A stretch of 64,000 nucleotides of DNA, taken from Amoebophrya sp. A120 (Eukaryota > Protista > Dinoflagellata). The notes under the pieces are model-generated. The model ran no database searches. It was not told the DNA's origin and worked only from the letters and a program-made list of their open reading frames with translations. The stretch spans positions 8,454,882 through 8,518,881 of the forward strand of contig CAJINV010000004.1 in assembly GCA_905178155.1 (NCBI GenBank). Direction: 5' to 3'. Shown here in pieces: positions 16,501 through 62,025 of this stretch. Both the position numbers and the translations under genes were made by a program. Each line of letters opens with the position of its first letter. Positions within the stretch are counted from its first letter, which is position 1.

Positions 16501-19500
16501 CATGATCACGATTGGAAATGCCTGTCAACATGGAGATGCGCATTACAAATGTTCCTGTCATTGCGCATTTGCATATACAACTCTGGGGTGGGGACGTTTT
16601 TGCTCATCATATGATCCCTTCCGCGGCATAGTAACCTCCACTTACGTGGACAACGCCGCCTAGTACCTGCTCCCGACAGTATCAAAATGAAAAATCCCCC
16701 CTCCTCATGTCAAAATGGAAGTCTGTGATGCGGGATTTGTGTACAAAAGTCATTTTGTCACGCTAGCAGGGAAATAAAGATGCGGACCGTAATACTGGGT
16801 GGCGTGGGAAATAAGCCTTGCATCTTCAGCATGCCAGCAGGCAGCTGGAAGTGGGAACAAACAGCATGACTATAATTGCCTGCACACGAGGCCTTGACTG
16901 CGCCTCTTGGCGTTCTAAGCAATACAAATCGATTTGTGTAGTTGTACTCAAATACAGCATCACAAAAAGTTTCGTTTTCGCTATGGGGACGAGGGGGGAG
17001 TTTTCATTTTGATAGACAGGCCTCGCTCACCGGGGCTACGAACCCAGACTGATTAATCCAGTCGGGATCCCACCAGGCCTTCCCGTACGTTAGTATCAAA
17101 TGTAAAAATGTCTGGGTCTGGAAGCTTGTGATGCTGGGCGGCGTCTCATGATGAGGCCACAAGTGCTGGCTCAGCATGACAAGTTTCTGAGCTTCTAGGT
17201 GTTGCCTATTCTGCATGACAAACTGCGTTTCTGCATCACAGAAAAGTGGAGCTCTTGGGTAACGTGCGTGACAGATTTAAGAGTCATGCCAGACAAGCAT
17301 GACAAACATGCATTCTTCCAGACCCAGACATTTTTGCACTTGATAGTTAGTTCTTGACCACGATAGCTATCTTTTATTTCGTCTCCAGTTTTGTTCCTCA
17401 GTCGTGCCTCGAAGAAAGCTGGTGTTGCCAGTTGCGCGGACAGGTGTTTCGTTCTCTGTATCAGCCAGCAGTTTTGTTGGGGGGTGCGAACGTTATCGGC
17501 GTTGGCACTGCTTATTATACTTGGGCTGAGGTTCTGCTGGCGCAATTTGCTAAACGGGTGGTGGAAGTCTTCGTAGATGAAAAGTGTGCATTTATCCTGA
17601 GGGAAAAGCGTCCCCACACCAGAGTCAAGATGGGAAATCTGCTAGACAAATTAGCCAGCTTTGGTTGCTTTGCATGACAAGTTTGTCCTCGTAGCGTAAT
17701 CCTGTTTAGGTAGTTCAGAAACATCACAGATGCAGCACATCATGCTGATTATAGCATCACAAATTCCGAAACACGAATAGAAAACGCTTCTCATGGGGCT
17801 CCGCATGAGAAATTTTTTTGGCATGCAGATTTGCATGACAACTCTGGGGTGGGGACGTTTTTACACAGGATAGCATGCCGGCTCCTCCACGCAGAGCTGC
17901 AAGCACTGGTCAGGCGTGGTGTCTTTGAAAGCGTCCGAACTCCGCCCGACCGTTCGGTTCGTCAGGTTCTTCGCGCGGAGCACGTACTCGTTCACGTGCA
18001 CCCCCCGCAAGGGTCGAGTGCATAAACTTTTGTACTTGTCAGTGACTTCGGGAAAGGGAAAAACGAGCCAGCTGCGCGTGTCGTTGTACGTGAAAACGTT
18101 CTGGACCGACGCGAAGTAGCCGATCGGGTATCCTACGCAAAAACGTCCCCACCCCAGACTCAAAATGGGGAATCTGCTAGACAAATCCACCAGCTATGGT
18201 TGTTGCGCACGCCAAGTTCTTTTGCCCCGTAGTGTAAAAATCCTGTTTCGCTCGTTCAGCAGCATCACAGATCTAGCCTGTGATGCTGATTGGAGCATTA
18301 CAAATTTTTAAACGCGACTAGAAGATGCTTCGTATGGGGCGGCCCCGCATGAGAAACATTGTGATCCTGATCATGCAGTTTTGCTGCATGACAACTCTGG
18401 GGTGGGGACGTTTTCACATAGGATATCGGGCCCTCGTTGATCAGTTCGAACGTCCAGCACGGTTTGTGCTCCAACCCAATCTGGTTCGCTATGGATTGCA
18501 AAAATGTCTGGGTCTGGAAGGTTGCAACTTGTGATGCTGCATTTGGATTCTAAAAGAATCTGTATTGCATGACCAGCAAGACGAGTCCAGTTTGTGCTAC
18601 GCGGGAAGGGCAGTTGTCATGCGAAATAGGCATCAGGAAGCCATCTAAAAATCTGTCATTCTAGCTCATGCATTACAGGCATCATGGGTCATGCTAAATA
18701 TGCATCACAAACCTGGCAATCTTCCAGACCCAGACATATTTGCAGTTAATATCCGCACGGAAGTCACAAAAGTAGTCCTTCGTGGGTCCGGGGGTGTCGG
18801 CCGGGCCCCCGTCGAACTGCGGCGCGATGATGCAGTCGTGGTCCGCGTGCTTCGTTCCGCGGTCTATGGTAAATTGTAACGTCGAGCCCGGCGGAAGTTG
18901 CCACTTTGTGATCTTCTGTTTCGGCACCACATCAGGCCCGGCGGGGTCGTCCCAGAAGGCTTCCTCGTCTGGCGTGGGAGCGCCCGGGGGGATCTGTAAC
19001 AGCATAAACCCCGTCTCGTGCAGCTCAAACGGCATGTTGAACTTGCTTTTCCGGAGTTTGCGGATCACAAACCCAGTCGGCGTTATCGAGAACGCTGCCT
19101 TGTCGAAAAGCACTTCCCTTCTCGCCACTAAATAAACCGGTTTGGAAAGCCCGTTCTCGAGCATGCGGAAGCAAAATTTCTCCGGGGTACAGTCGGCCGA
19201 TGGTCGTTGTGCTGCTACTGCAGTTGTTGTGCTGTTTTTATCTTCAATATTTGATGTCGTGTTGGCGGATGTAGTAGCTCTTGTGTTTGCGCCTGTGCTG
19301 CTGGGTAGAAGTCGCGTAGTAAGTCCAGCCTCCGACGCCAGGGTTCTTGACGTCGCCGACGTGGCTTTATTTGACGCTCCTGCTCTTGTTGCGAGAAAAG
19401 TAGTCATCCTCGCGCCGTCCTCTGGGAGTAGTTGCTCGACTCTTGCCTTTTGCTGATTTTCTTCTTGCATTTCGTCCTCTCCAGTTGGGGAAATCGCTGT

Positions 19501-19995: not shown

Positions 19996-21879
19996 CCTAA
20001 AAACTAGCCGGACAGGTTCATGCCAAGAACCTTCCCATCCGCATCGGCTTTATCTGTAGCTTTACTGAATATAGTCTTGTGTTTGCGATGAAGTATAAAT
20101 TTAAATACTTTATTGGAGCATATTCTTATGCTTAAAAATATGGAGGCATGGGTGCTACCCTCTATCGTGCGGGTTTCAACATTCCATTGGCACCATGGCC
20201 TACCGAGGGGAATTTTTACTGGCCTCGAAGGATACTGAAAACTGTAGCCATACGGTACGTTGCTGTCGCAGCAGCCACACTAGAGGAAATAAAGCCTGTT
20301 TCATTTTTTTTTGGGTGAGACGAGGTCGACGAGCATTTCTGGATTTCAGTCAGTTAGCTGGCCTACTTAGCGACGAAAATGTTAGCACAACAAGGAGCAC
20401 ACGCAGCCCACAGACGAAAGACTGCACGAAAAAAGGGAAGCCAGGACGACAACAAAAAGTACGATGAAAAATACGTATGTTGGTGTTTGTGTTGTCAGTC
20501 AGTAAAAAATGCAGAATATGTTGTACAGTTGGTACACCAACACGAGCGTACGACGGTCTGCCTTACCTTACGCACGAAAAAACCTACCACGACTAAATTT
20601 GACAGCGATTCCGACTCATCAGCACGATGAATTCCTGATGGTTCTCAAGAAGACGATTTCTTGCAAAGGTGGTTTAAGTTCACGTCACGAAAAAGACGCG
20701 CAATGCCGCATGCCTTGTTTCTTTTGTGGGCAACCGCAAGGTGGCAGGCCACAGGTCTTCTGCGGCCATGATCATGCAGCTGCCAATTCGAATTTTTCTC
20801 AATCAATGTTCTTTACAAACGGTTCGGCACTAGAATTCGTTTCTTAGGATTAAAGAATTTCTTCAACTTCAACAAAAAAAAATTATAGGCAATCACAAAT
20901 ACTAGGAGCACCAGAAATTTGGATCTAAAAAGAAGATTAACATCGAAACCGCTGCATATCTTGCTTGGGTAGTGACCTGGCGATAAGTACTTATTTACCT
21001 TCTTTGCAGGAGAAAAACGAGAGAATTCAGGTCACTTCACATCTCCATCTTCACTTGTAGAAACATAATTGCATAATATCCTTGCTCCAACTAATACACC
21101 ATAATACTTTCGTAATTCAGGGTAAAACTCTTCCTTTCCAAAAATCTAATTTACAAATCGTACATAGCCGCTTCGGTTCCGAACTTCTTTGGCTATAATT
21201 TGCGAAGAACTTTGAGGCTTTTTTTGTTTTCCAATCGACAGAAAAATATCATAAGTACTGCTTTTTGTCTTTTTCAAACAGCAAAGTCGAAATTGAATTT
21301 CAATTTTTAATATTCGCAGTTGCAGTAGAAGAAGCAGTAAAATAGTTTTGCTTTTTCACGGAAGAAATTTTGCAGAGAAGGCTTAGTTGAGTTTGGCAAA
21401 CGAAATAAACTTTGTACTGAATAAAACAAGGAGTGAAAGAAATTACGCTCTCTTTTGCAGAGAGCAAAATTTTTTTCAGTTTAGGTTTTTTTATTTTTGA
21501 GAAGATGAGATTTGAGTACCAAATAAGATTAATATTTATATTACGCTGTAGCTAGAAAGAACCATTTAGCAAAAAAGAATACCAATCGCAGAAACTTTAC
21601 TTTCAGAACGAGCGAAAGATTGATTTTTCGAGAACAGAAAAGATACGTCTTCATGTAAAGACATCAGAAACTTTTTTACCCTTTACATAGTGATAGTCCC
21701 AGTAATAATTCTGTGCACTACTTCCTGTTATCAAGATCAAGTGGTCAAACACAAGAAGAACTAGAACTCGACATACAAGTATCGGTCTGAAACAAAAAGA
21801 ACTGTGAACTGCGATATATTGCAAAAATCCTCCGGCCGGCGTCAGTGGGACTCGAAGCGCTGCTCACTTTTATACTTTC

Positions 21880-24800
21880 CTATACCAACGCAGGGGAGAT
21901 GGCCACCGGGTTCGAACTGCCAGTTCCAGCAGCACCGTCCACCAGGATCCTGTCGTCGGCCGGAATCGCGAAGTCGCGTTCCATCATGTGCGGCCCGCGT
22001 GGGGTTTTCTCGCTCTTTACCGCAGCCTCAATGCGGGTCTTCGTGATCTCAATCACGCGCGCGTCGAGCTGTTTTTGATGTCGTGTATTGGTTTCTCTTT
22101 CTTCTCATCGAGATGAGAGTCCATTTGGAAGATGAAACAAGATCAACTCCGATTAAGCTACGACACACTAGAACACAAAGTCTTCGTCTACCTTTTCATC
22201 CCCCCAAAAGGCCTTCATTCCCAGCAAGTGTCGTACGTCGCTCGCGGCGTATTCGATCAGCATAGGATGCAAGGGCCGTCGCGCCCATTCTTCGCCCTCC
22301 TCTTTGGTATACAGCTTCTGCCCGGCCTCCTTCAGCCTGTGATATTGAATATTGTTTTGGGGGTTGTGCGTGAGCGTGGTGGAAGTGTAGAGTAGAATGG
22401 GATTACGAAAGTGCATGCGTGTGTGCATGACAAACTGAAGCTCGTCAAAGGATGAAGTATACAATACTAGTATGGGTCGTATGCATGATGAAGTTTATAC
22501 AATAATGCTAATACTTCTGAATCCGCTCTCTTTGCGCTAGTGCCAGCACCGAGTAGTTTCGGAAGCAGCGGCCGAGTCCCACTACGTAGGTGTGCTTCGA
22601 AATCGGCTGCCCATACTTCAGGTGAAACAGCACTTGAATGTCATACACGTTCTCCGTTTTCACGCGAAACAGGTGCCACAGCTGTGATTGTGATGTTGTG
22701 TACGTGGTGATTTTGCATGACAAAGAAGATTTATCTACGCATAATTTTTGCATGACAAAGTAGAACCACAACTTCTATACCGCATCATTGTCAGCCCGGC
22801 CGTCGAAGACAATTTTGCACACTTTCGCATTTTCCAACAAACTCCGCATTCCGCAGACGGAGAACAGCGTTTCCCCGATATTATTTGCAAAAGCGTCCCC
22901 ACACCAGAGTCAAGATGGGAAATCTGCTAGACAAATCAGCCAGCTTTGGTCGTTTGGCATCACAAGTTTGTCCTCGTAGCGTAATCCTGTTTAGGTAGTT
23001 CAGCAGCATCACAGATCTAGTATATCATGCTGATTGTAGCATCACAAATTCCAAAACACGACTAGAAAATGCCTCTCATGGCGCTCCGCATGACAAACTT
23101 TTTTGCCACGCAGATTTGCATGACAACTCGGGGGTGGGGACGTTTTTACTCTGAATACCCGAGCGCCTTCACGTCAAACAGGTAGACGGGTGAGAGTTCG
23201 TTGCAAATCTGGATCAAGTACACCGCGCCGCTGCGGTATGAGAGTGCAAAACCCCGCCCCTCCCCCTCATTTGTCATGCAAAATACCAAACGCACCCTTT
23301 GCCTCTTGGCACTTTTTGCATGACAGATTCTGGTAGCTGCCCAAACAGCACTACAATCAGTCCGAGGTCGTGGATTTGCCATGCAAAACCTGCACTCTTG
23401 CCGACGCTTGTATTGCTGCTCATACCCTACACATAAGGGCGGAGGGAGGGTTGTGCACTCTCATATGCGGCACAAGTCCCGGCCCTCGATGTCGATCGCG
23501 ATCGGGAGATCGTCGCTTAGGAGTAAATATCAACTGCAAAAATGTCTGGGTCTGGAAGAGTGCATGTTTGTCATGCTTGTCCGGCATGACTCTTAAATCT
23601 GTCATGCACGTTACCCAAGGGCCCCACTTTTCTGTCATGCAGAAACGCAGTTTGTCATGCAGAATAGGCAACACCTAGAAGCTCAAAAATTTGTCATGCT
23701 GTGCCAGCACTTGTGGCCTCCTCATGATACGCCACCCAGCATCACAAATTTCCAGACCCATACATATTTGCAGTTCATAGTAAATCAATCGCCGCCTTCG
23801 CGGTGTCGGGTTGGTCCAAAAAACACACCGTTTTGATCGTGGTCGCCACTAACGTGGTGTCCTGGTAGTGCACGGACAGGGACAGACTCGGTGCGGTGGA
23901 CATGGAGGCGAGATTTTGGGTGGCTTTTTCGAAGTCCGGGTTGCCGATGATGTCGTCGTTGTGACTGGGGAGGGGTAGGGTCAGGGGCGGGTCTTCGTGT
24001 TTCTCCACCAGGTTCTTCACGAATTTTTGGAAAAAGGACTCGATCTTGGGCGGTGTCGTGCTGGTAATATTCGGTATGGAATGTAAATATGTCTGGGTCT
24101 GGAAGATTCTGAGACTTGTCATGCAGGTTTTGCATGAGTCATGATGTCTGTGATGCGTGCCCTAGCATCACAGATTTTTTGAGGGCGTCTTGATGCCTAT
24201 TCCGCATGACAATTGCCCTATCCGCGTAGCAAAAATCACACTCCCTTTGCTGCTCATGCAATACAGATTTTTTTGCAATCCAAATGCAGCATCACAAGTT
24301 GCATTCTTCCAGACCCAGACATTTTTGCAATGCATATTCGGTGCGGTAGAGCCAGAAACTTTTTCCTCGATGAGCTCGCTGTTTTTCTCGAAAGGGTTGG
24401 CGAGTGCCTCGAGAGGAATGGTACAATTATCGGTGTGCAGGACCTGTGGTTATTTATTTTGCTGATGACAATGCTTCTGCTTCGTTCACGTTCTTATACG
24501 ACAGATGTGATGACAATGCTTCATTCAAGTTTTTTTATACGAAGTTTATTATAGGAAATTTTACGGAACAAAGGGAAACTAAACAATTATAGCTACCTCT
24601 TTCTCCTCTCCAATCACGGCAGCAGTGTTGATATCAAATGTAAAAATGTCTGGGTCTGGAAGATTCTGAGATTTGTAATGCATGTTTTGCATGACCCAGG
24701 ATGTCTGTAATGCACGACCGGGCATCACGGATTTTGAGCTGGCTTCCTGATGCCTACTCCGCATGACAAACGCCCTCCCCGCGCATCACAAACTAGACTC

Positions 24801-26491: not shown

Positions 26492-26654
26492 CTGCGGGAT
26501 GGGCTGCTGGTGAGACCTCGGTAGTTGTACAGAGGGTGGTTTAATATACAGTAACAAATCACGCAAGAAATCAGGGATCTTCGTAGTACCTAATACCAGT
26601 GGAAAACGAAAAGAATATTGCTGGTGTTGAGCAACAGCAAAAGAGAAATTTCTA

Positions 26655-35599: not shown

Positions 35600-36869
35600 C
35601 ATCCTCACAACCCCGGAATCCAGAATGCACTGCTCCTTGGGTGGTTTCGGATCGCGGGGGCCGTCGTGGTGGTACTACCGTTTCTCCTGCGGCTCTTGGA
35701 GCTCCGCCCACTTCCACCGGCTCTCTTTGTGGCTTTCGCAGGGCGGAAACAGCTGCACCAGGAGCAGTCTATCCTGAGTAAAAGAGTCCCCGCCCCAGAA
35801 TCAACGAGATGGGAAATCTGCTATACAAATCAACAAGCTTTGGTTGTTGCGCACGACAAGATTGGGCTCGTAGTTTGCTCCTCTTAGCTTCTGCAGCAGC
35901 ATCACAGATCGATTACGTGATGCTTCTTCCAAAATCACAAACTCTGGCGTGGGGACGTTCTTACTCAGGATACAGTCCTCCTCTTCTTCATCCTGGAGGT
36001 TCGGCTGTCGTTTTCCGGGCGTTTTTCTGAGAGTGCACAACCCTCCCTCCCCCTATTTGTCATGCAAATTCCCAATTCTACCTTTTTTCTGCTAGCACAT
36101 TTTGCATGACAGATTCCGAAAGCCAAAACCGCACTACAATCCTCTAGGAATTTGTCATGCAAAAGCTGCATCTTTGCCAGCGCTTATGTTACTGCTCACG
36201 CAACACAAATGAGGAGGAGGGGGAGTTGTGCACTCTCATAGTTTTGCTTTGGCAAGACCGCTCGACTGGCAACCGCGGGACCCGGGCAGGACCTGTGCCG
36301 ACGTTCTGTTGTTGTAACAATGGCACACTGCGACTGTTTCCCGCGATCAGAGGGGCATAGTTGCGGTGCCAGGTGCGCTGCTGTTGTTGCTGCTGCGGTG
36401 GCTGTTGTTGTCCCTTCGTACTAGGCTGCTGCTGCCCTCCCAACGCAGCAGCTGCTCCTCCCGCTCCTCGTAGTCGTCTCTCAGCATCGTCTTTCAGCTT
36501 TGCGGCATTGGGTAGCTGCGCGGCCGTAGCAGCGCCCGCGCTCTTGCCGAAGAGGTTGCTGTCGTCCGCATAGAAGTCGTCGTCTTCTTGAATTCCTAAA
36601 TTCGCCAAGTTGTAATCTGCAAGCGAGCTTCCCGTCGACATCAAAGCCGCAGTGCTGGGAATCGATGAGGACGCGACACTGGACATACTGCCCGGAACTT
36701 GCTGTTGTCCTTGCTGTGGTGGCCCACCTCCACGACCTTCATAGGGGTAGTGATCGAGCGTACCGTGTTGTCCTCGTCCGGGCTGGAACCGCCGGTGGGA
36801 TAAAAAGAGACTGTTTGCAGCTGGAAAAAATTCAAGCAAGACGAGGACAAGAACCAACGACGCCAACAT
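35600..36869 (-). CDS. Hypothetical secreted protein (3' end uncertain)
   Basis: ORF 36189-36869 with signal-peptide-like MLASLVLVLVLLEFFPAANS; continues through two introners. Confidence 0.5.
35770..35972. mobile_element. Introner, family B (short)
   Basis: Family B TIRs; DR cagtc. Confidence 0.9.
36026..36240. mobile_element. Introner, family D
   Basis: Family D TIRs (left end tct); DR gtttt. Confidence 0.9.
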
Positions 36870-45761: not shown

Positions 45762-46684
45762 TTCAAAAACTTGTGTGAGGATGGAGAGAACTTTTTGCTG
45801 CTTCGGAGTAATACTACGTGTAATCTGTAGTCGCAAAACTGGGAGCGACCCGGGCTCCACCAGCGGGAAAGATCAAAAACGGCGCCGGAGCTAGTACTTG
45901 TTATCTCCGCCAGTGCGCGCCGCCGTCGCCTCTATGAGGATGACTAGGTAGCAATACTATCGACCGCGGCGGCAGGCTAATACATTTTTCCTCCTTGCGT
46001 AAGTGCTGACCTCAGGGTCATCCGGGTCACAACTCGGAAGCTGCATAGGTGTACTAGAAGTCCTCAGCTTCGTTCAAAGCGAAGTCCAAGCCCGCAGAGG
46101 AGAAAGTCGCCAACGTCCGCGCCGTCCCGGGGGCTAGCATCTTGATACACCGGACAATCCCTTTCAAGACAACACCGAATTCTAAGTACCAAGGGATGTT
46201 TATTTGGTAGTACCGCCAGAAAAAGTAAAAGCCCGCCCCAGCGGTGTGGAAGAACAAACGGCGCAGCACTTTATTTTTGTGTGAGCCCATCTACTTGTAC
46301 ATTTACCACCACCTCTCACTCTTTTGTAGTTCTACCGTTATTTATTACGGCGTGCTTCTGCAAGAGCTTTCTCTCGTCTCGCGCCCCGCTCACAGCCACA
46401 CGTCTCACACCGCTTGTGGTTGGCCGGTCGTTGGAAAGAACACAGATCACGCCCCGCTGTGGAAGTCGTGTTTTCAACAGCTTTCAGAAGAGTACTATGT
46501 CGCGGCCATTTTAATTTTCATTTTGTGCAAAAATGATTAAAAAACGGTTTATCTATTTGATCTGTGACGTGTCCATTTCTGAACCAACTGTCAACCGAAT
46601 CCAAAGGCAGCGCACCATCTTCGAGGTCACAAGACATCATGTTCTTCTGTCCGGCACAGCAGACTCATCATGTTTACAGTACGC

Positions 46685-49600
46685 CTAGTAATCCTCCTCG
46701 CCTTCATCCCCGTAGCTCTGACCGTAGTCATCGGGCCTTCGCTTCTTCTGTAGGTGCGTGAAAGCGGCGAATGCGCCGCCGACTGTGAGCACGCCCAGCA
46801 CCACGCCGAGGCCGATGTATAACTGTGCGGAGCTCTTACTCTCCTCTGGTGCCGGTTTAGGCTTTGGTGGCGGGTCGCACGCGTCTTTCGCTTCCGAGAA
46901 AACCGGTCCGCAGCTCTGGGGTGGGGACGTTTTTACACAGGATAGCATGCCGGCTCCTCCACGCAGAGCTGCAAGCACTGGTCAGGCGTGGTGTCTTTGA
47001 AAGCGTCCGAACTCCGCCCGACCGTTCGGTTCGTCAGGTTCTTCGCGCGGAGCACGTACTCGTTCACGTGCACCCCCCGCAAGGGTCGAGTGCATAAACT
47101 TTTGTACTTGTCAGTGACTTCGGGAAAGGGAAAAACGAGCCAGCTGCGCGTGTCGTTGTACGTGAAAACGTTCTGGACCGACGCGAAGTAGCCGATCGGG
47201 TATCCTACGCAAAAACGTCCCCACCCCAGACTCAAAATGGGGAATCTGCTAGACAAATCCACCAGCTATGGTTGTTGCGCACGCCAAGTTCTTTTGCCCC
47301 GTAGTGTAAAAATCCTGTTTCGCTCGTTCAGCAGCATCACAGATCTAGCCTGTGATGCTGATTGGAGCATTACAAATTTTTAAACGCGACTAGAAGATGC
47401 TTCGTATGGGGCGGCCCCGCATGAGAAACATTGTGATCCTGATCATGCAGTTTTGCTGCATGACAACTCTGGGGTGGGGACGTTTTCACATAGGATATCG
47501 GGCCCTCGTTGATCAGTTCGAACGTCCAGCACGGTTTGTGCTCCAACCCAATCTGGTTCGCTATGGATTGCAAAAATGTCTGGGTCTGGAAGGTTGCAAC
47601 TTGTGATGCTGCATTTGGATTCTAAAAGAATCTGTATTGCATGACCAGCAAGACGAGTCCAGTTTGTGCTACGCGGGAAGGGCAGTTGTCATGCGAAATA
47701 GGCATCAGGAAGCCATCTAAAAATCTGTCATTCTAGCTCATGCATTACAGGCATCATGGGTCATGCTAAATATGCATCACAAACCTGGCAATCTTCCAGA
47801 CCCAGACATATTTGCAGTTAATATCCGCACGGAAGTCACAAAAGTAGTCCTTCGTGGGTCCGGGGGTGTCGGCCGGGCCCCCGTCGAACTGCGGCGCGAT
47901 GATGCAGTCGTGGTCCGCGTGCTTCGTTCCGCGGTCTATGGTAAATTGTAACGTCGAGCCCGGCGGAAGTTGCCACTTTGTGATCTTCTGTTTCGGCACC
48001 ACATCAGGCCCGGCGGGGTCGTCCCAGAAGGCTTCCTCGTCTGGCGTGGGAGCGCCCGGGGGGATCTGTAACAGCATAAACCCCGTCTCGTGCAGCTCAA
48101 ACGGCATGTTGAACTTGCTTTTCCGGAGTTTGCGGATCACAAACCCAGTCGGCGTTATCGAGAACGCTGCCTTGTCGAAAAGCACTTCCCTTCTCGCACG
48201 AAAAAAGAGAAGCCAGGACGACAAAAAAAAGCACGATGAAATAAAATACGAATGTTGGTGTTCAAGTTCGTGTTGCCAGTCAGTAAAAAATGCAGAATAT
48301 GTACAAACAGTTACTACACCAACACGAGCGTTGTACGAGGGTCTGCCTTACTTTACGCACGAGATGAAAACCTAGCACGACTAAATTTGACAGCGATTGT
48401 TCCAACTCATCAGCACGATGGATTCCTGATGGTTTATGAAATGTAAAAATGTCTGGGTCTGCAAGAGTGCATGTTTGTCATGCTTGTCCGGCATGACTCT
48501 TAAATCTGTCATGCACGTTACCCAAGGGCCCCACTTTTCTGTCATGCAGAAACCGAGTTTGTCATGCAGAATAGGCAACACCTAGAAGCTCAAAAATTTG
48601 TCATGCTGTGCCAGCACTTGTGGCCTCCTCATGATACGCCACCCAGCATCACAAATTTCCAGACCCATACATATTTGCAGTTCATAGTAAATCGATCGCC
48701 GCCTTCGCGGTGTCCGGTTGGTCCAAAAAACACACCGTTTTGATCGTGGTCGCCACTAACGTCGTGTCCTGGTAGTGCACGGAGAGAGACAGACTCGGTG
48801 CGGTGGACATGGAGGCGAGATTTTGGGTGGCTTTTTCGAAGTCCGGGTTGCCGATGATGTCGTCGTTGTGACTGGGGAGGGGTAGGGTCAGTGGCGGGTC
48901 TTCGTGTTTCTCCACCAGGTTCTTCACGAATTTTTGGAAAAAGGACTCGATCTTGGGCGGTGTCGTGCTGGTATTCGGTGCACCAGGAGCAGTCTATCCT
49001 GAGTAAAAAAGTCCCCGCCCCAGAATCAACAAGATGGGAAATCTGCTAGACAAATCAACAAGATTTGGTTGTTGCGCATGACAAGATTGGGCTCGTAGTT
49101 TGCTCCTCTTAGCTTCTGCAGCAGCATCACAGATCGATTAGTACGTGATGCTTCTTCCAGCATCACAAACTCTAGCGTGGGGACGTTCTTACTCAGGATA
49201 CAGTCCTCCTCTTCTTCATCCTGGAGGTTCGGCTGTCGTTTTCCGGGTGTTTTTATGAGAGTGCACAACCCCCCCTCCCCCTCATTTGTCATGCAAAATC
49301 CCAATTCTACCTTTTTCCTGTTAGCACTTTTTGCAGGACAGATTCCGAAAGCCAAAACCGCACTACAAGCGAAAGTCGCACGCGTCTTTCGCTTCCGAGA
49401 AAACCGGTCCGCAGCTTTCGTACATTGAACGCACGCGTCCGAGAGCAGGCGGATGCAAGGCAGTAAATCACGGATAGCCCACGGAGGCGATGGTCCCGGC
49501 CGAGGCGGGACGCAAGGCAGTAAATCACGGATTGATACGCAGAAGAAGTGTTGTGTCTGCCCTGCAAAAACGCAAGATCTAAATTTGATGATCGCGAAAG

Positions 49601-52600
49601 CGGAAGACTTTGTTTGCGGACGAGGTCGTGTAAAGATCAAAATGAAGGTGCAGTTTCCATTCATGCTCATTAATTGTTAACAGGATAGATGATGATGATG
49701 ATGAATGTCAGATCTCCTGTCCTCCACCTCTTAGTTCACTACTTTCCAAATGTGCTACAAGGCAGAAAACGCCGCACGTATGCGCTGTGTGATTTCTTCT
49801 GCGCCGACTTAGCCGTTTGCGCGAAGTCGGAGGAGCTGTTAGATATTTGTTACTTTGTCCAATCATAAGCCGTTCGGTGGCCTCACTACAAACAAACAAA
49901 AAACCCCGCGACGCTCTAGCGTTTTTGATGTCGCTGGCATTAGTTGTGCGGCCCGCCGTGCTTGTGATTTTGATAGCATGCCATGGCTATTCATAGATCT
50001 CTGCAATCGCACTCCCTGCGCAGTTCACCCACCAAGCGAAAGTGCGCGGAAACGATGACACTCAACCAAGGCAGTGCCACTGCGCACTGTAGACATCGCG
50101 GCGAGATGCCCTGCGACGGTCACAGTGGAGAGTAAGGAGAGAGCCCGGCCGCGGCCAGCCCAGCAAGCTACAAAGAGCAAGCCGCGCGAGCCACGCGCTA
50201 AAGCCACACAGTCATAGCCAAGTCCCGGGCGTAAAATAGCTTGGCCAAACCGACCGGACCCACCGAAAACCTTCCCCGAGTGCTATTCAAGGCAGGGGCC
50301 GTAAATCGTTCGTCCGACGGCAGCGGGTCGCACGCGTCTTTCGCTTCCGAGAAAACCGGTCCGCAGCTTTCGGAAGCCCGTCCCGCAAGACACTCCGCGC
50401 CGCAGCGCTTACCAAAGGAAGGGCCCGAGCTCTGGCCCCCGCACGAAAATTAGCCCGCGGGCTACGCAGGCAGTGCCGGGGCGGCCATTGGAGGCCGCCG
50501 CCCATGCTGGCTTGTAAATTTCCGCTCCTGACGAGAATGGCGCCACGCCCCCGCCCCCAAGAGGCGGCCTATCTTTTGTCGCTTCTGCGTTGGCCTTGTA
50601 TATTCCGCCGTAGCTCCGGGCGGCTCAGCAAAACCGCCTCCAGGAGTCACTTCTATTGTTTTCGCGGGCCCTTTTGGGGTTTCGTCTAGCCACCCGCCCG
50701 CAGACGGAAAATTTCGAGCCTCGCCTAGCTTCTCAGAAATCTTCTTGCAAAACAACCGAGCGCGCAGAATCACGATCGAAGTCCACGCCTTCGGGCTTTA
50801 GAAGCTTGCTACGCGCGCGGCATTTTAGAAAGAGCCGGGTGGCGACAGGCTTTCGAAGTCGAAAACAAGGGGGCGGGCAGCGTTCCGAGCCGTTTGCCAC
50901 AACTTGGCTCCCCGCGGGCCCTCGAGCTGGCCTGCCCGCCTGCGGGTAGTGTTGGGGCATGATGCTCGACATACAGGCCGAACACCATGCCCCATCTTTG
51001 AAGCACCGCCGCCCACCCCAAGAGGAAGGACAGAAGTTTCCGCGCCATGCTTGTTGAGATCGGGCATTGGGAGGGTCGCACGCGTCTTTCGCTTCCGAGA
51101 AAACCGGTCCGCAGCTTTCGTACATTGCCGGCTCGTCGTATGGCACGAAAATAAAACTGTTGTATCAGTCTCAATTTGTTTTGCGGAGTTTGCTTGCTGC
51201 CTCCGGTTCCTGTCATGCTCGACATGGAAGATGAAGTCGGAAGGCCGCGGGGTTATGGTTTTATTGTGTTGCTAGAACAAAATGTCCGAATGGGAGCAGC
51301 AGGTTTGAGGCTTCTAAATACAGTTTTTTTTTTTTTTTTTTTGCCAAGGGAGGACTGGATCAAGCATGGACAGTGGTCCACTTTCCTGACTACTAGAAAG
51401 AAAATCTACTCATTCGCAAAATGGTTCTGCTCAGGATCTCGTTGTTGGTTGCGCCAGCAAGGGGGATAAAAGTAAGGCTGGTACGCGGATACAGGTGCAA
51501 GGTGTTCCAGTGTGAAGACAGATTCAGACCAGCGGCACAGCACCTCCCGCGCCCCGGCCGGGCCCCGCGCGCTCCCCTTCCTGGTCTGGCCTCACTGGAT
51601 GACTTCTAAATACAGTTTCAACTTTTTTCACGTCCGATACCTCACTAACATCCGCTTTCAGGTCGATTATCTTCTTTTTCGCCAAGTCGCACCCGGCGTC
51701 TTGAAACGCCTTCAGCCCATATCAGAGTGAAAAATGCGCCCGCCCCAAAAGTTGCGAATAATTTGTGATGCGAAGTTTCCAAAAGAAAACTCTTTGTCAT
51801 GCATGAAAAGAGAATGAATCTTTCTGACGCGAAGTCTAGATGAGCATGAGATGTATATAGCATCGCTTGCATGACAAGCGCCGCTCTTGCTGGGGTCTTT
51901 TGCAATGCAGGTTTTTGCTATTCACGATAAGAAATCTGTCATGCTGATAGACGCAAGAGGGCGAATGTTTCATTTGGAACGGTTTGCAATACAAATGCTC
52001 CCAAGTTCTGGGGTGGGCACATTTTTCATTGTAATAGTCCGCAGAAGCAGCTCTGCGAGATTTGGAGACACCGAAACCGTTCCTCGTCGTCGTATATCAA
52101 ATGCAAAAATGTCTGGGTCTGGAAACTCGTAATGCTGTGTTGGGAATAGTGAATGCACTGTAATGCACAGCCAAGCATGAGAAATATCTGCGCTTCTTTG
52201 TATTGCGTTTTTCGCATGAGAAACTGCGTTTTTGCATGACAGGCAAAAGGGTCTCTTCTTGGACACGCATTACAAGCTTTTTTGTCATGCCACCAGACAA
52301 GCATGACAAATCTCGCAATCTTCCAGACCCAGACATTTTTGCATTTGATATCGTGGACCTCGTCCGGATCGAACGCGTCACTTCCCACTTTCCCGAAACA
52401 CGGCCCCAGTACGTGGTCTTCGCAGGCCGCCGCGTCGCAGCTCGCGAAGGCCCCGTTGCACAATCGGTCGGCCCAGGTGGACGGCGGCTCCACGTCGTAT
52501 CAAATGCAAAAATGTCTGGGTCTGGGCACTCGTGATGCTGGGTGGCGTCTCATGATGAGGCCACAAGCGCTGGCTCAGCATGACAAGTTTCTGAGCTTCT

Positions 52601-55600
52601 GTTCTAGGTGTTGCCTATTCTGCATGACAGACTGCGTTTCTGCATCACAGAAAAATGGAGCTTTTGGGTAACGTGCATGACTGTCATGCATGTTACCCAA
52701 AAGCTTCATTTTTCACATGCATTCTTCCAGACCAAAAAGCTGGCATGACACCCATGCATTCTTCCAGACCCAGACACTTTTCCATTTGATACGTCGCAGA
52801 GCCCGGCCATTTGCTGCAGGAAGAGCAGCGAGTCGGGTTTCAGTACGTCTGCGTCGACGCCGCAGGCGTCCTTCCAGGCGGTGTGCGACGATTTGCAGGG
52901 GTCGTGCTGGCAGTCACCTGGAATGATGTCGTCGTCGGGAACTTCCATGCTCGGCTCCAGGTAGAGGCAGTTCGAGTAGTAGCTTTCGGCCTTCGTGACG
53001 CAGTCGTCGATCAGGTTTGTGTCTTTGCCGATAGAAGAGAGGCGAATCGCTATCCCGGGCAAAAACGTCCCCGGAACCAGACCTAGAGTCAAAGTCAAGA
53101 TGCATAACTATTTTACTTAGACTTACACAAAGCAACAGCTTTGTTTTGCATTTGCTGGTTGTCACGTCGCATTAATAAAAGTGTGGGATCGCAGCGTCAT
53201 CCTGATAGCTTAGCTATTGTAGCTGCATCAAAATAAATCGGCCGCCTTTTCCTGATTTATTTACTGCTCCACCCAGATAGCGATTACAACAAGCTTTTCG
53301 TGTGGTTGCGCATGAGACGCATCTATTCGTCTCAGGCATACAGATTTGCATCACAAACTACTTGGCATTGGGGCGCTTTTCCTCAACAGGATAATCATCA
53401 CATAGACCATGGTCTTGCTCGTCCACAGACAGTATGCATTGCAAATATGTCTGGATCTGGGAAGATGGAAACTTGTGACTCTCTCTGCCGCACTCGCACA
53501 AAAATCTGCAATGCACGAGTGTCAAAACCTGTGGCCCACTTTTGGCCACCCTGGGAAAGGATGTGTCATGCAGAATAGGCATTGCAAAGCTATTGCGCTA
53601 GACCCTGTAGTACTGCTGGGCCGTGCAAATTAGAACTTCTTGGCGGCGGCGGCCACACAAAAAGAAAAACACAAACAGCATGACAAACTTCAGCATATAT
53701 CCAGACCCAGCCATGATGTTTTTATTTGATAAACACTCGTTATCGGTATCCGCCGTGCAAGCGTCCTGCGCACCATCATGTACACTGCAATCCGCACCCT
53801 TTTCGGAGTTTCGGCTCCTGCAGAAAAACGGGGTTGTCTTTGTAGAAGTACTATCGGCTAGTGTTTTTACCTTCGACGACATCGTTGCGCCGGATGAGGA
53901 TTCACTCTGGAGCAGTTTGTATGAACTGCAAAAGTATCGCACTCGTATAAATGCATCACAGCATGAGAAATAAAATTTGTCATGCTGATTTACCTAAATA
54001 AAAATATTTGTAATGCAAGACTTGCATTTATACGAGTACGATACTTTTGCACAGGATAGTTTGTTCCCGGGTAGACGAGCAGGTGCTGTTTTCCTTTTCT
54101 CGACCTCGTCGTCACGAAGGACGTATCCTGTGCAAAAGTATCGTACTCGCATTGCAATCATGCATTACAAATCTCTTTCTTAAGGGTAAATCTGCATATA
54201 CAAATTTTATTTCTCATGCTAAGGAAATTTGTACTGCATTTATACGAGGGAGTACTATACTTTTGCAAATAATAGGACGTCAACATCATCATCTGCTTCG
54301 ATTCTATTCTTGTCGGCTGCTGCTGTTATGTTGCTCGGACTGGTTACGACCAGGGAGTTGGCCGCGCGCGGCCCGGACTTAGCTGTAGTATTGCCCTGTA
54401 GAAGTTCCGACGAGGAGCGGTTGGGAAACACTGCTGCTGGCGCAGGAGTTTGCTCATGGCCGCCCGGCGCAAGGCCGCGGTCCGATACTGCCAGACGCTG
54501 CTTTGATTGCGAAAAAAAATGAAAATCGTACTTATGCATTTTCACAATAACAAATTTCAATTTCTATCTTTATTTTTTCTTTATCTTTTGGAGAAGAAAA
54601 AATGAATTTACGCATGAAGCTTTGCGCCGGGTAGCAGATCTGTCACACGACATGCTGTAGCGCAAATAGTACGAACAAGTACGGTAGTTTTGCAATGAAT
54701 ACGCACACCCCTTCGCCAGTTCGCAAAAACGTGGGCGCGAAATCGTCATACTCGTCGGCGCGCACGAACTGCCCATCTTTTTGTTGGACTATTGCTTTTT
54801 CTTCGTTACTAACCAGTGGATTTTGGTTGCTTTGGGGCTCCTGCGGCAGCTTCGCTTGATTGTCCTCGCTGAGTGGCGTAGTTCCAGATGATTTACTGCT
54901 GGGCGCTTGATGATGTGCAGCGGGGGCCGTTTCCAACTCCCCTGCTCCGGCGGCCGCGCTGGCGTTTAAAAATCCGCTCGCGGCTGCGATGTCGTCGATC
55001 TCCTGTTGCGTGTCCAATACTAGACCGGGACCAGCCGAAACTGATGGCACAATAGAAACGGAGTCGCGATAACGAAGCAAAACCGCCGGTGGGTGACTGA
55101 CGCACAAGTTGCTCGGCTGAACAGAAGTAGATTCCCCCGGCGTTTCCTGGTGCGCTTCCGGGTCTGCAGAGTAGAGCTTGTTGAGCAATTCGGCGTACTC
55201 GCTGCTGTTCTGCTTCCAACCCAACGCTTTCTCGAGCGCACTGCGCCTCACGCAGAGTGTTTCTTCTTGAACGGTAAAGGAACAAGGGTCACTGTGCCGT
55301 TCAAGTCCACGGACAGGCTTTGTTGCCGTGGCTGATGTCGGTGGCCCAGTACTTGCTGGACCGGCCACGGCTGGCGGTCCCGTGGAGGATGCGGCCATAT
55401 TGATTTTAGATGTTTTTCAACATTGAGTCGCTGTTGATACTAAAATTTTTTTGCACTTTTTCTTCGCTGTGTTTTTTACGTTTCATATTGCGATAGTCCA
55501 CGTATTCTAAGCCCCTCTAGAAGACCCTCCGGAGGTGGCTATGGGCCTCTGACGGCAGTGGTCATGTACATGTTTTCGTTTGATCTTCTTCTTCAGATAG

Positions 55601-56311
55601 ACACAGCTGTGTAGCAATTCAGTAGGAAGAAATCGCACTTCATCATTTGTCACCACTACGCATCCTCGCCGCAAGCGCGTGAAACTACTGTGGGCGTCAA
55701 TGAGATCTTTTTTGGCTTCGTCTGCCCGGCGCAAGGCCGCGGTCCGATACTGCCAGACGCTGCTTTGATTGGGAAACTTCTTCCACAACATGTTGCCCAC
55801 CTTGTCCATCTTGTTGTGGTGTTCCAGATCCAGTATGATCTTTATTTCTCTCATCCCGCAGGAGCAGCAGCTGGGGTTCCGCTCCGGCCTCCAGAGCGAA
55901 GGCGGCGTTCTTCTGGAGAGAAGAAGAAGATGGCTGAAAATGCTCTTGGTTTATTACCTCATTTAGATCCCGCACGGATGTTTTTGCATCGGTTCTCGTT
56001 CTCCCGCCCAGGTCGCTCTGCGGGGTGGCGGATGAAGACGATACTAGTGCAGCAGTCTTCTCTTCGCGCTGATGCAACCCGTTTAGCTCATGCTTCCCGT
56101 CGTTCTGCTCCGCATCAAAGATGTCTTTAGTGTCCTGATCTGCAACATGCAGCTGCAGTAAATGATCGGTTCGAGAAGTATCAATCGCGCACACGAAGAC
56201 CAGCTGCACTGGGTGTTGCTGCCGCCATCGCCAAAAAGACGTTCCGCTGCAGCAGGCCACTGCGAACAGACGCAGCAAACACGGGCGGAGAGGCGGTCGC
56301 ATGTTTCTCAT
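46685..56311 (-). CDS. Cys-rich type I membrane protein interrupted by 8 introners and two long-DR-flanked insertions (functional status unknown)
   Basis: Signal-like N-terminus (ORF 55697-56311), then ...SQSKQRLAVSDRGLAPG[insert]GHEQ..., Cys-rich exons 51640-53919, EPAMYESCGPVFSEAKDACDP[insert]PPKPK..., TM LYIGLGVVLGVLTVGGAFAAF and a short tail. The frame is continuous once the inserts and one repeat copy each are removed. Confidence 0.7.
46872..46915 (+). repeat. 44-bp target repeat, copy 1 (others at 49375-49427, 50323-50372, 51073-51116)
   Basis: gggtcgcacgcgtctttcgcttccgagaaaaccggtccgcagct occurs four times (copy 2 lacks the first 2 nt). Confidence 0.95.
46914..48197 (+). repeat. Copy of 17842-19125, including introner copies 47201-47497 and 47562-47823
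   Basis: Constant offset of 29072; identical ORF translations. Confidence 0.95.
48196..48434 (+). repeat. Diverged copy of 20424-20643
   Basis: gcacgaaaaaag...ttcctgatggtt with several substitutions and indels. Confidence 0.9.
48435..48978 (+). repeat. Copy of 23528-24074 (introner plus exonuclease exon)
   Basis: Starts at the first base of one introner and ends at the DR of the next. Confidence 0.93.
48979..49368 (+). repeat. Copy of 35754-36139 (introner B copy 48995-49200, truncated D from 49254)
   Basis: High identity with scattered substitutions. Confidence 0.93.
51139..51639. mobile_element. Decayed long introner-like intron
   Basis: tatggcacgaaaataaaactgt...acagtttcaacttttttcacgtccgata; DR cgtcg/cctca; join DVS-E-EPAMY in frame. 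Confidence 0.6.
51720..52036. mobile_element. Introner, B-related TIR variant
   Basis: tatcagagtgaaaaatgcgcccgcccc...ggggtgggcacatttttcattgtaata; DR matches 3/5. Confidence 0.8.
52095..52350. mobile_element. Introner, family A
   Basis: DR tcgta/tcgtg. Confidence 0.9.
52498..52791. mobile_element. Introner, family A, with internal fold-back
   Basis: DR cgtcg. Confidence 0.9.
53051..53393. mobile_element. Introner, family B (diverged)
   Basis: DR atcgc/atcat; join VYVMI-RLSS. Confidence 0.8.
53433..53731. mobile_element. Introner, family A (diverged)
   Basis: DR gacag/aacac; join NEC-LWTSK. Confidence 0.8.
53920..54058. mobile_element. Introner, family C
   Basis: DR gtttg. Confidence 0.92.
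54124..54274. mobile_element. Introner, family C
   Basis: DR ggacg. Confidence 0.92.
54462..54509 (+). repeat. 48-bp target repeat (second copy 55724-55771)
   Basis: gcccggcgcaaggccgcggtccgatactgccagacgctgctttgattg is exactly repeated. Confidence 0.95.
54506..55724 (-). pseudogene. Captured 5' fragment (upstream region, first exon, truncated introner) of the 58607-61452 gene family
   Basis: 55181-55724 is near-identical to 61235-61778; 54506-55180 is a diverged homologue of 60467-61234; ORF 54643-55398 parallels 60706-61452. Confidence 0.85.
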
Positions 56312-58606: not shown

Positions 58607-61452
58607 TCACAATTCCAATTGCGGGAAAACGCATCTGATTTCGATTGGCTCTTTCATCGGTTCCTTCCGCCGACGACGTTTCTCGAAAACTTCCGCCGCC
58701 ACGTCAAGCCAGGTGTGGTCCGCTTTGAGAAAGCCGGACCCGATCTTGTCTTTGTTTATTTTCCCAGATGATGCTGGTTCTTGCGCTTGCTGTGCGCTAG
58801 GGGATTTGTTTTTGCCACCGTTGCTGCTGGTGCCATTATTCTCCGCTTCCTCCTCGTCAGGAAGAAGTTTCTCGCGGTTGTTATCTGCTGTTGTGTTTGC
58901 CGGAGCGGATGCCATTAACGCGTCTTGTTCACCGCCCTCGATCATATCATCGTCCCGCCTCTCATCCTGACTGGCGTCAACATTGTCATCGGCAGGAACA
59001 AATCCCGTTTCATCCTGTAATTCCTCGACCAAAAACTTGACGTTTTCTGGAGCGTACTCTTGGAAGCCGGGAAAAATGTTTTTCCACCATAAATTCTCGC
59101 TCTTCTCCCCCGTTATAATGTCCGCAAACCTCGTGCCGTCGACGGCATGCTCCCGAACGATCTTCACCAGCAATTTCAGTTCCTCCAAAAATGTTCTCGC
59201 TTCTGCGCCTGTACCAAATTCGAAATCGATCTTTCTTGCAATTCCGCTGTCGGGCATGTTAAGTGCAGGTTGGAAAGTGATGCGCACGGCTTGCTTGTCG
59301 TCCTCTGGAGGGACGGCACTGGAATCCGACTCGTTGATAAACATATTCGCATCTGTATGTGCAGGATTAGTGGATAAATCTCCGTGGTCTTGTGCGCTGA
59401 CATCTTCCCCGGCTACAGCAACTGCCTCGTCGTCGCCGGTGGTTTGCGGCAGAGGCCCGTAAAGAACTACAGCTGCTCCTTCTCGCGCGTGCGAGCTGCT
59501 ATTTTCACCGTCTTCTTCAACTCCGATTTCTTCGTTCTCCTCGCGTTCGTAGGTCCCAGGCGGCCAGTCGGAAAATTGTAATTCTTGTCCTCGCAGCTCG
59601 ATCACAATGAAACCGGTATAATAGGTCGCCTCCCGAGCTTCCTCCGTTGACCAAAAAACTGGTATGCTACGGTCTAGCAATCCGAAGTGGTGGCTCAAGC
59701 CAAGCTTGACACGCTCGTGAAGATCCACCGACAAACTCGGGATATCGTCCTGCTGGACCCAGCAGTGGTATACTTCGCCTGTATACAGACAAACCCACAA
59801 TCCCAAGTAAGCTTGCGGAAAAACTTCTGTGTCGCGAAAAGGCATCTCGTGAGGGAATGCGTCCGCCGGCGAGCGGGTGATGCGTTCAACATTATGCGGG
59901 TTCGCGAAGCGAAGAAGTGCCGTGTGCCGAAACTGGCGACAATCCCGCTCCTTCTTCAACGCGCTTTGGTCCCAGCAATCCTCGTCCAGGTCCAACAACT
60001 GCTCGCGGTACCGGAGACGCCGGGCGAACGTGCCCTCCGGTAGCTGAAACTCCTCCTCCAGCCGCTTCCCAACGTCCGCAACAAACGCTGCCTCGAGCTT
60101 GATGGCTTCCTGTCGGAGCACGCTTTCCAGTGTTCGAAGTATTGGCATCGGTTCGGCGAGCAGACAGGGGTGGACCGCGAAATCCCGCACACTAGGACAC
60201 GGTGCTACGGCCACACTAGACGCCTTTCCTGCGGTAATCTCGTGCTTGCCCATGTTCACCAGGCGAAACGGCAAACAGAGTCCGTCCGCTGCTGCGGCCG
60301 CGGTTAAGATATTCTGTCTAGGGTCGTGGACACACGTTCTTAGCAATGTGCCATCGCTGTCGGTTGCAGCGGCGTCCCACTGCCTTGCCATCAGTCTTAT
60401 CAGCTCCAACCTTCTTTGCCTCTTTTTCACACACCGTAGAACCGCGGCAGCGTACTCGTACTATGCATTGCGAAAAAATCGTACTTCTAGACTAAAGCTG
60501 CGCATCTTCACAAATTACTTTATTCGAAGTGCGAGGTAACAAACTCAATCTGGAACTTCGCGGTTGAGTCCTTATCCGCCCGGCCGGCCGGATGACAACT
60601 CAACCACTTCTGCAAAAAATACTGAAAGCATTTTTTGAAAAAGAAAAAAGAAAATCCTCGTGAAGTTTCACGCCGGTTAGCAGATCTGTCACACGACATG
60701 CTGTGTCACACGACATGCTGCAGCGAAATTAATACGACTAAGTACGGTAGTTTTGCAATGAATACGCACACCCGTTCGGCAGTTTGCAAAAACGGGGCCG
60801 CGAAATCGTCATACTCGTCGGCGGACGCGACCACGACCTGCCGATCTCGTCGTTGCACCGATGCTTTTTCTTCGTTACAAGCCAGCCGATTTTGGTGATT
60901 GCGGGGCCCCTGCTGCAGCTTCGCTTGATTGTCACTCTCGTCGGGCGGCGTGGTTCCAGAAGATTTACTGCTGGGCGCTTGAAGATGTGTTGTTTTCAAC
61001 TCCTCTCCCCCGACCGGGCTGGTGCCCGTCAATCCGACCGCAGCGGCGATGTCTTCTATTTCCTTCTGCGTGTCGAATATCAGTTTGGGAGGAATCGAAC
61101 CTGATGGCAGGATCGAAATCCTGTCTTGGGAACCAAGCAAAACCGCCGGCGGATGCTTGGCTTCCAAGGTCCTCAACAAAGTTTTTTTCCACGTATCATC
61201 ATGGACCACTTCCAGGTTTGCAGAGCCGAGCTGCTTGAGCAATTCGGCGTATTCGCTGCTGTTCTGCTTCCAACCCAACGCTTTCTCGAGCGCACTGCGC
61301 CTCACGCAGAGTGTTTCTTCTTGAACGGTAAAGGAACATGGGTCACTGTGCCGTTCAAGTCCACGGACAGGCTTTGTTGCCGTGGCTGATGTCGGTGGCC
61401 CAGTACTTGCTGGACCGGCCACGGCTGGCGGTCCCGTGGAGGATGCGGCCAT
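58607..61452 (-). CDS. Hypothetical protein, tandem paralog 1
   Basis: ORF 60706-61452 joins 58607-60430 in frame (ERVC-EYAAAVLRCVKKR) across one introner. Confidence 0.75.
60462..60764. mobile_element. Introner, family C-like (long)
   Basis: tatgcattgcgaaaaaatcgtact...agtacggtagttttgcaatgaata; DR cgtac/cgcac. Confidence 0.85.
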
Positions 61453-62025
61453 ATTGATTTTAGATGTTTTTCAACATTGAGTCGCTGTTGATACTAAAAT
61501 TTTTTTGCACTTTTTCTTCGCTGTGTTTTTTACGTTTCATATTGCGATAGTCCACGTATTCTAAGCCCCTCTAGAAGACCCTCCGGAGGTGGCTATGGGC
61601 CTATGACGGCAGTGGTCATGTACATGTTTTCGTTTGATCTTCTTCTTCAGATAGACACAGCTGTGTAGCAATTCAGTAGGACGAAATCGCACTTCATCAT
61701 TTGTCACCACTACGCATCCTCGCCGCAAGCGCGTGAAACTACTGTGGGCGTCAATGAGATCTTTTTTGGCTTCGTCTGTACGGTGCTTTTGTTTGTCGTT
61801 GAAGTTGCAGAGCAGCTCATCTCAAGATGGCAAAATGATGTAATAATGTCTTGTAATCATCTTTTTATCTCCACTGCCACGCGAATTCATAGTCGCAAAA
61901 GAAGCCTAGAACACCCGGATCCGTTCCTTGCGAGCAGCATTAGTGCCACTTTCTTGCTCCTTCACGAGATATTCTCAGTCTTCATCATCAGTGCTCGAGA
62001 ACAGAATCCTCCGCCCCAGATCAGT

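Follow-up and report, generated by a model that had tools for sequence, protein, structure and literature searches.

A 4.2-kb patch in an exon of Amoebophrya sp. A120 joins copies of nearby loci and returns three times to its own target

Serial template switching is reportedly the core of the models set out by Hastings in 2009, fork stalling and template switching and microhomology-mediated break-induced replication (FoSTeS/MMBIR). In the cancer genomes of Li et al. 2020 (PMC7025897; this and the other PMC-numbered papers are cited for excerpts), cycles of templated insertions are somatic, take up 2-7 templates that typically lie on different chromosomes and make one return. Engineered breaks with 43-50-nt 3' overhangs lead to duplications of nearly the whole overhang, and compound products from repeated rounds are also noted (Schimmel et al. 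2021, PMC8355091). Here we describe, in a 64,000-nt stretch of the dinoflagellate Amoebophrya sp. A120 (contig CAJINV010000004.1; "the window" below), a 4.2-kb patch (46872..51116) that sits within an exon and consists of the blocks T1-A1-A2-A3-A4-T2-B-T3-C-T4 (Table 1), in which T stands for copies of one target sequence, A1-A4 for copies of loci within the window, and B and C for two segments with no source in the window.

By analogy, the overall form of the patch would best fit a cycle of templated insertions as excerpted from PMC7025897, with which it shares a string of copied templates, a re-replicated host stretch and sources that stay intact. It differs from the tumour cases in having at least 7 pieces of 0.05-1.3 kb, four of them local and collinear, in its three returns to one 44-53-bp stretch, in being fixed in a protist genome and in its templates from another haplotype. 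The FoSTeS/MMBIR models reportedly share the serial switches on 2-3-nt matches and the short templated fillers but give no reason for a repeated return to a 50-bp stretch, and inversions, said to be common there, are absent here. With the small tandem duplications of PMC8355091, joined by non-homologous end joining (NHEJ) with CST or by polymerase theta, the patch shares a duplicated overlap of about 50 nt and microhomology; those arose from engineered nicks in mouse cells, and the excerpt describes no kilobase templated inserts between the copies. Chimeric L1 insertions likewise join several sources between target duplications (excerpt of PMC13174262), whereas the patch has no retroelement part and no poly(A), keeps its introns and shows a much longer duplication. 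The introners of Amoebophrya (excerpts of PMC7789003 and PMC12130899) are inverted-repeat introns with short direct repeats in co-oriented genes, as also seen in the window, but the patch itself is no introner; introners are its cargo and possibly one of its switch points. A literature search that left supplements and most subscription papers outside returned no description of such insertions in dinoflagellate relatives. The class of mechanism is already known, and the unusual parts are the triple return, the absent template and the recurrence.

The patch begins and ends on an exact 44-mer (46872-46915 and 51073-51116) that occurs again at 50325-50368 and, for 42 of its 44 letters, at 49375-49416. 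The target is thus present four times with 0 mismatches between copies, the full copies being 44-53 bp long, and a 30-nt target pattern matches the window 4 times, where 100 shuffles lead one to expect 0.00. Followed from T1, the path goes back to the host target three times and re-copies 42-53 bp on each occasion. It re-enters at 46874 (T2), 46870 (T3) and 46872 (T4), within 7 nt, and leaves at 46915 (T1), 46926 (T2) and 46919 (T3), within 12 nt. A fifth return of 10 nt lies inside B at 49430-49439 (chance about 2e-4 for this 10-mer). A scan for exact direct repeats of at least 20 bp, within 7 kb and outside introners, gave the target family, a 21-bp repeat in B and a second event nearby with its copy, while block shuffles yielded no direct repeat of 16 bp or more. 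A preliminary description of this DNA, made from its letters alone, had the 44-mer bracketing the insert and recurring inside it and saw no element-specific ends; the four exact copies bear out the first point, and the absence of fixed ends and extra copies the second.

Two classes of element were considered and set aside. Pack-type terminal inverted repeat (TIR) transposons have terminal inverted repeats, a short fixed duplication and several copies; the ends of the patch are not complementary, its duplication is 44-53 bp against 5 bp for the local introners, and its junction contigs are single-copy. Helitrons have 5'-TC and CTRR-3' ends and insert between A and T with no duplication; the minus strand of the patch begins with TC, but there is no CTRR end and no A-T site, and the target is duplicated.

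Table 1. Positions of the blocks of the patch, their resident sources and the second event in the window (X1 and X4 are public sequencing runs)
Feature	Coordinates	Strand	Remarks
A1 resident source	17842..19125	-	intact gene; open frame of 663 amino acids after introner removal
A2 resident locus	20424..20643		
A3 resident locus	23528..24074	-	own X1 contig, depth 37.9
A4 resident locus	35754..36139	-	own X1 contig, depth 31.1
T1, target copy	46872..46915	-	joined to last exon (Pro linker, hydrophobic stretch, stop at 46685)
A1	46914..48197	+	exact copy of 17842-19125; last 30 bp of one introner, exons, two whole introners
A2	48196..48434	+	diverged copy of 20424-20643, upstream region of the A1 gene
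A3	48435..48981	+	diverged copy of 23528-24074; introner without left target duplication, exon, introner-free form of the 24075 site
A4	48979..49368	+	diverged copy of 35754-36139; whole introner, short exon, half of another introner
6-nt filler	49369..49374		target fold-back or copy of 50033-50043 in B; crossed by an X4 contig, no other letters
T2, 53-bp target copy	49375..49427	-	
B	49428..50322		mini-return 49430-49439; single-copy 49428-49503; about two-copy 49504-50277; multicopy 58 bp near 49811-49868; single-copy end
T3, 50-bp target copy	50323..50372	-	
C	50373..51072		50374-50480 low-copy GC-rich repeat; 50481-51072 single-copy
T4, target copy	51073..51116	-	runs on into native upstream exon
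Second event	54462..55771	-	exact 48-bp repeats (54462-54509, 55724-55771) around a 1.2-kb copy of 60630-61778; inside an open frame

Eight of the 11 listed public sequencing runs (X1-X11), from two studies, carry the stretch or part of it. Contigs or reads of seven of the 11 were compared, X5, X8, X10 and X11 lying outside the comparison, and X1, X2 and X7 are possibly the same sample as the assembly. All nine patch junctions are crossed by contigs of these runs, several at single-copy depth and some in samples of the second study. An X1 contig runs over A1|A2 and A2|A3 at a depth of 30.1 against 29.8 in the left flank; in X2 the contig depths are 41.2 at T2|B, 42.5 at B|T3, 38.5 at T3|C and 40.3 at C|T4. 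T1|A1 is crossed in X3 and X4, A4|T2 in X4 and A3|A4 in X6, and one spliced contig ties three junctions together. The junctions are real and single-copy, and the patch is fixed and single-copy. That it is an assembly chimera, or a second allele assembled in tandem, is hardly credible. Such an error would agree with the lack of a listed contig across the patch, and the best DNA runs may be the assembly's own sample, but the junction contigs stand at flank depth (30.1 against 29.8 in X1; 38.5-42.5 in X2), source and copy alleles lie in separate contigs, and the junctions are found in second-study samples as well. The preliminary description had named a chimera and a multicopy element with fixed ends as ways in which the patch might be something else: contigs across all nine junctions at single-copy depth answer the first, with the order A-B-C still taken from the assembly, and single-copy junction contigs and the lack of fixed ends answer the second.

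The order and strand of A1-A4 are those of their sources in 4/4 pieces (order alone, 1 in 24), and all four loci named in the preliminary description are recovered in this arrangement. The sources are single-copy and still intact in the window and in X1 contigs, and four whole introners are retained in the patch. A1 differs from its source at 0/1284 bases, A2 by 15 substitutions and 8 gaps, A3 by 12 substitutions and one 3-nt gap, and A4 by 16 substitutions and 2 gaps; A2-A4 thus diverge by 2-7% from the resident sources and A1 not at all (Fisher P = 2e-13, 4e-7 and 5e-11 for A1 against A2, A3 and A4). The identity of A1 is not a polishing effect, because X1 collapses both copies without other letters, and A1 stands near two-copy depth (collapsed X1 contigs at 50.6 and 41.7, flank 29.8).

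Where both donors are known, three of four junctions show microhomology, of 2, 2 and 3 nt. T1|A1 overlaps by 2 nt (CT), A1|A2 by GC, A2|A3 not at all and A3|A4 by T or TGC, and the tiny overlaps first reported are all borne out. Polymerase-theta end joining leaves 2-6-nt microhomology and short locally templated fillers, and junction features of this type (2-3-nt overlaps, fillers) are present in the patch, short target-derived or B-like fillers lying at two junctions (49369, 49430). The letters of the 7-bp fold-back proposed at 49369 are there, but an 11-nt match of the filler junction with 50033-50043 in B explains them about as well as the fold-back does. Two of the eight source breakpoints fall within 1 bp of an introner edge (P=9e-4, post hoc) and four of eight within 31 bp (P=0.009, post hoc). 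A3|A4 is an empty introner site with a 3-nt overlap, and at A2|A3 the introner's first 28 nt hold 4 differences and the 224 nt that follow hold 2 (P=0.0016, post hoc), a pattern that suggests copying passed from one introner end to another. For these two reasons, the empty site at A3|A4 and the fit of A2|A3 to an introner-end switch, cutting by a transposase at the ends of introners was set aside. It is also very improbable that free fragments, from meiotic double cuts or from cuts by an introner transposase, were captured and ligated into the break: the kept order and strand of all four pieces would arise about 1 time in 190 if random, both introner-edge coincidences are explained otherwise, and inserts in mouse are mostly under 340 bp.

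The divergence of A2-A4 bears on who donated them. In the A3 exon 6/6 changes are synonymous, with 0.234 expected per change, and the single change in the A4 exon is synonymous too; A3 is not kept by selection in the patch, because it is out of frame there. A scan of metagenome contigs returned one orthologous locus of another strain (L001; 1/177 candidate stretches), and the comparison with it covers an 8.6 kb orthologous span (6.3 kb of sequence). L001 and the window are 86-96% identical, that is, the strains differ by 4-14%, and their introner content differs. In three-way, alignment-dependent counts of substitutions, A2 has 2 that are copy-only, 15 resident-only and 8 L001-only, whereas the A3 exon has 3 copy-only, 2 resident-only, 9 L001-only and one three-way site; of the 6 changes in the A3 exon, 3 are copy-only and 1 is three-way. 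For most of its alleles A2 agrees with L001. The introner at 24075 is absent from both L001 and the patch, and A3 ends on the introner-free allele. The synonymous-only exon changes, the alleles shared with L001 and the introner-free site together point to a donor of A2-A4 that was a functional allele of another haplotype, distinct from both the resident and L001. Template switching from local DNA, as proposed in the preliminary description, fits the anatomy of the patch, but three of the four local pieces come from the other haplotype, and B from outside the window.

An older patch from the own lineage, in which gene conversion re-made A1 identical and A2-A4 drifted, is unlikely in our view. 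A1, the longest piece, would suit conversion best, the private 3-nt insertions of A2 could have accumulated after insertion, and the second event likewise has a near-identical half (3/526) and a distant half (110/652). Drift, however, should be mostly non-synonymous, and the 3-4 copy-side exon changes are all synonymous and the gap is in frame (P ~0.013-0.003); the target copies, moreover, are identical. A donor in another haplotype could have been reached by copying from the zygote homolog or made foreign by a later swap of the resident 20-36 kb tract; both fit the sequence. A cryptic sexual cycle has been argued for a related parasite (excerpt of PMC13693241).

The comparison with L001 also gave observations on introners at large. 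L001 shows clean empty sites where the window carries introners at 22879, 23237, 23528, 24075, 24632, 24942 and 25890, and it carries further introners that the window lacks. Among gaps between haplotypes (20290-28030 against L001; 48196-49368), 18/33 clean gaps are 3 nt long, and 14/18 of these fit "target duplication minus two, one complemented base", against 9% for random 3-mers and an expected 54% for a two-base repeat with a random middle base. These 3-nt gaps resemble hairpin-type excision footprints, such as Ac/Ds leave, with no footprint tied to a known introner site. If they are excision footprints, introner loss would add one codon in frame.

Apart from the target, nothing else in the window matches B or C over more than 14 nt, as the preliminary description had it; its term GC-rich suits C (62%) but hardly B (53%; window 49%). 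In X2 the depth along B is 41, then 68, 58 and 75 (49504-50277), then 42.5, with single-copy at about 40. The stretch 49504-50277 stands at about two-copy depth and has sources elsewhere in the genome; B is thus copied from loci outside the window. At 49504, where contigs have loose ends, a source of B diverges leftwards, and a 2786-nt contig departs at 49803, so B would itself be a mosaic or its source interrupted. B differs from its source at 49551 and probably also near 50043, where there is a break. The depth of C in X2 is 143-220 over the repeat part, then flat at 40.3 from one contig (likeness 85). For 592 bp of C (50481-51072) no source was detected in X2 contigs at likeness 85, a filter that can hide records. 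In 13 frames B and C gave 0 Pfam families and no retroelement coding sequence; neither has an exact 22-nt match in viral contigs or a match in phage records, and Rfam gave over 46000-56000 only three sub-threshold hairpin matches, all within introners.

The patch is spliced in RNA-like contigs. The window is crowded with elements of 139-335 bp that start with TAT, end with ATA and have inverted ends, 33/45 of the automatically called ones having a perfect 5-bp target duplication, and long frames are mostly on the minus strand (21/28). The RNA label of X3 and X6 is no more than a guess, but introners are missing from their contigs; no run carrying the stretch is recorded as RNA. The elements are missing from these contigs along with one copy of the duplication (two pieces of X3 record 11 are separated by 60 nt, which are 47497-47556), and at two neighbouring introners in 47190-47832 the exon reads in spliced contigs exactly as it did before insertion. 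A 1034-nt X3 contig joins A3, A2, spliced A1 and T1, a 654-nt X6 contig joins A4, spliced A3, A2 and A1, and X4 and X6 cover B from 49398 to 50250 or 50108. In X9 (raw RNA reads from another sample) 95 reads matched, all on introner parts. RNA-like contigs do not cover most of C or 51134-51310, a gap that we do not read as silence; 51134-51310 is missing from the DNA run X2 too.

Target-primed reverse transcription, in which the enzyme would have jumped within one unspliced transcript or from one to another, is an origin that we consider distinctly unlikely. In its favour, every piece is in sense orientation relative to a single strand, the end of A3 falls on an introner boundary with one introner cleanly absent, as after splicing, and a poly(A)-tailed insertion with a 16-bp duplication 200 bp away indicates that retro-machinery is active here; template switching by L1 is also known (excerpt of PMC13174262). 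On the other hand, no junction has a poly(A) or simple-repeat tail, unlike the neighbour at 51311-51618, and four whole introners are kept although contigs show that introners are spliced. The missing introner is missing from L001 DNA as well, the duplications are 44-53 bp against 16 bp at the local retro-insertion, and the 13 frames of B and C hold no retroelement coding sequence.

The host gene looks like one for a cysteine-rich surface protein, although neither it nor the source genes gave a Pfam family or a usable Atlas match. In silico removal of the introners leaves A3 and A4 in different reading frames, and the A1 frame meets a stop in the introner remnant ahead of the target, so that the membrane-anchor exon gains no in-frame fusion. 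The preliminary suggestion that exons were shuffled into another gene finds no support at the protein level, and the patch is a scar in a gene that is probably broken, with no fused protein made. The same gene carries at 51311-51618 a SINE-like or LINE-end insertion (short and long interspersed elements), about 290 bp long, whose target duplication measures 16 bp and whose poly(A) tail is on the minus strand. Related copies occur in X1 and X6, and an X3 contig of the host 5' part runs into it.

With moderate confidence we favour for the patch the repair of a staggered break with an overlap of about 50 bases, three returns to the overlap and templates partly from a second haplotype; the break, its being a single event, the diploid stage and the enzyme are what we infer, while the structure, the junctions, the copy number, the foreign alleles and the splicing are seen in the data. 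Nicks about 50 nt apart would leave the target on both ends. One end would prime on 2-3-nt matches or introner-end homology and hop forward along 17.8-36.1 kb to produce A1-A4, whose arrangement is read directly from the patch and whose making would be of this kind. The growing end would then anneal close to the tip of the opposite free end (46870-46876 being the range of re-entry), copy 42-53 nt, roughly as far as the overhang reaches (exits in 46915-46926), and be released; B would be copied, followed by a return, then C, a further return and sealing. A fixed free end is suggested because re-entry is tight near one tip and exit comes about 50 nt later. A target hairpin as stop signal was rejected, its folds being only -3.9 and -7.7 kcal/mol and wrongly placed for the exits. 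The donor allele and most of C would have been present in a zygote or fused cell and then segregated away, or else the resident 20-36 kb tract may have been replaced by later recombination.

Three successive break-and-patch events at one fragile site, each adding a block and a target copy, are rather unlikely but deserve weight, as A, B and C relate differently to the resident genome and the three duplications differ in length. They would need three cuts within 5-12 nt without a known site-specific nuclease. No differences separate the target copies (P=0.05 to 0.003 for copies of the age that the A3 or A4 divergence implies), and neighbouring blocks are tied to each other by the mini-return at 49430 and by the filler that ends A, which may derive from B.

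Several points weigh against repair of a single staggered break as we picture it. One event with three returns is indistinguishable from three events at one site, and B, which departs from its sources at a few sites, falls between the identical A1 and the more distant A3-A4. Five or six 3-nt insertions in A2 are absent from both the resident and L001, although A2 has only 2 private substitutions, which the model leaves unexplained. No listed contig spans the whole patch, so that the order A-B-C rests on the assembly; most target junctions have 30 target-side letters, one short of the 31-letter bridging rule, and A3|A4 has only 8-11 letters on its right side. The empty allele was found in no strain, protein searches giving 0 matches among 200 and 3 candidates. 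Of the leads to it, two weak protein matches are unrelated membrane-anchor look-alikes, a further locus (L002) is a chance proline-run match in a bacterium, and an X6 contig with the last exon, the target and 11 upstream letters, possibly a graph join through the 44-bp repeat, was not used.

A second insertion lies 3.4 kb from the patch, its structure being known from the assembly sequence alone. The copy has the orientation of its source, a gene 6 kb away, and deletion of the event in silico leaves one open frame of 270 codons. The 5' half of the copy differs at 3/526 bases (99.4% identical) and the 3' half at 110/652 columns (~80% identical), with its frame open, so this event also would seem to pair a resident-like part with a part lacking a close source in the window. 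The event and its 48-bp duplication speak in favour of the repair proposed for the patch. Beside it, 58610-60460 and 61910-63231 form an older paralogous gene pair, short stretches of which are 72-75% identical.

Two cases in 64 kb with near-equal duplication length suggest a frequent event with a signature ready for scanning. Whether the lineage has a recurrent, genome-wide copy-in repair with a target duplication of about 48 bp, acting when diverged haplotypes share a nucleus, we regard as a tentative idea that is more doubtful than probable. If this reading were true, single-copy "ghost" pieces of a lost parent and new spliced transcription units would be expected across the genome, and such scars could serve to detect and date cryptic sex. 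Because the patch preserves alleles no longer found at their home loci, it would, if our reading holds, be direct sequence evidence of past mixing of haplotypes several percent apart, and a pattern from tumours and engineered breaks would be a natural, heritable source of gene duplication in a protist.

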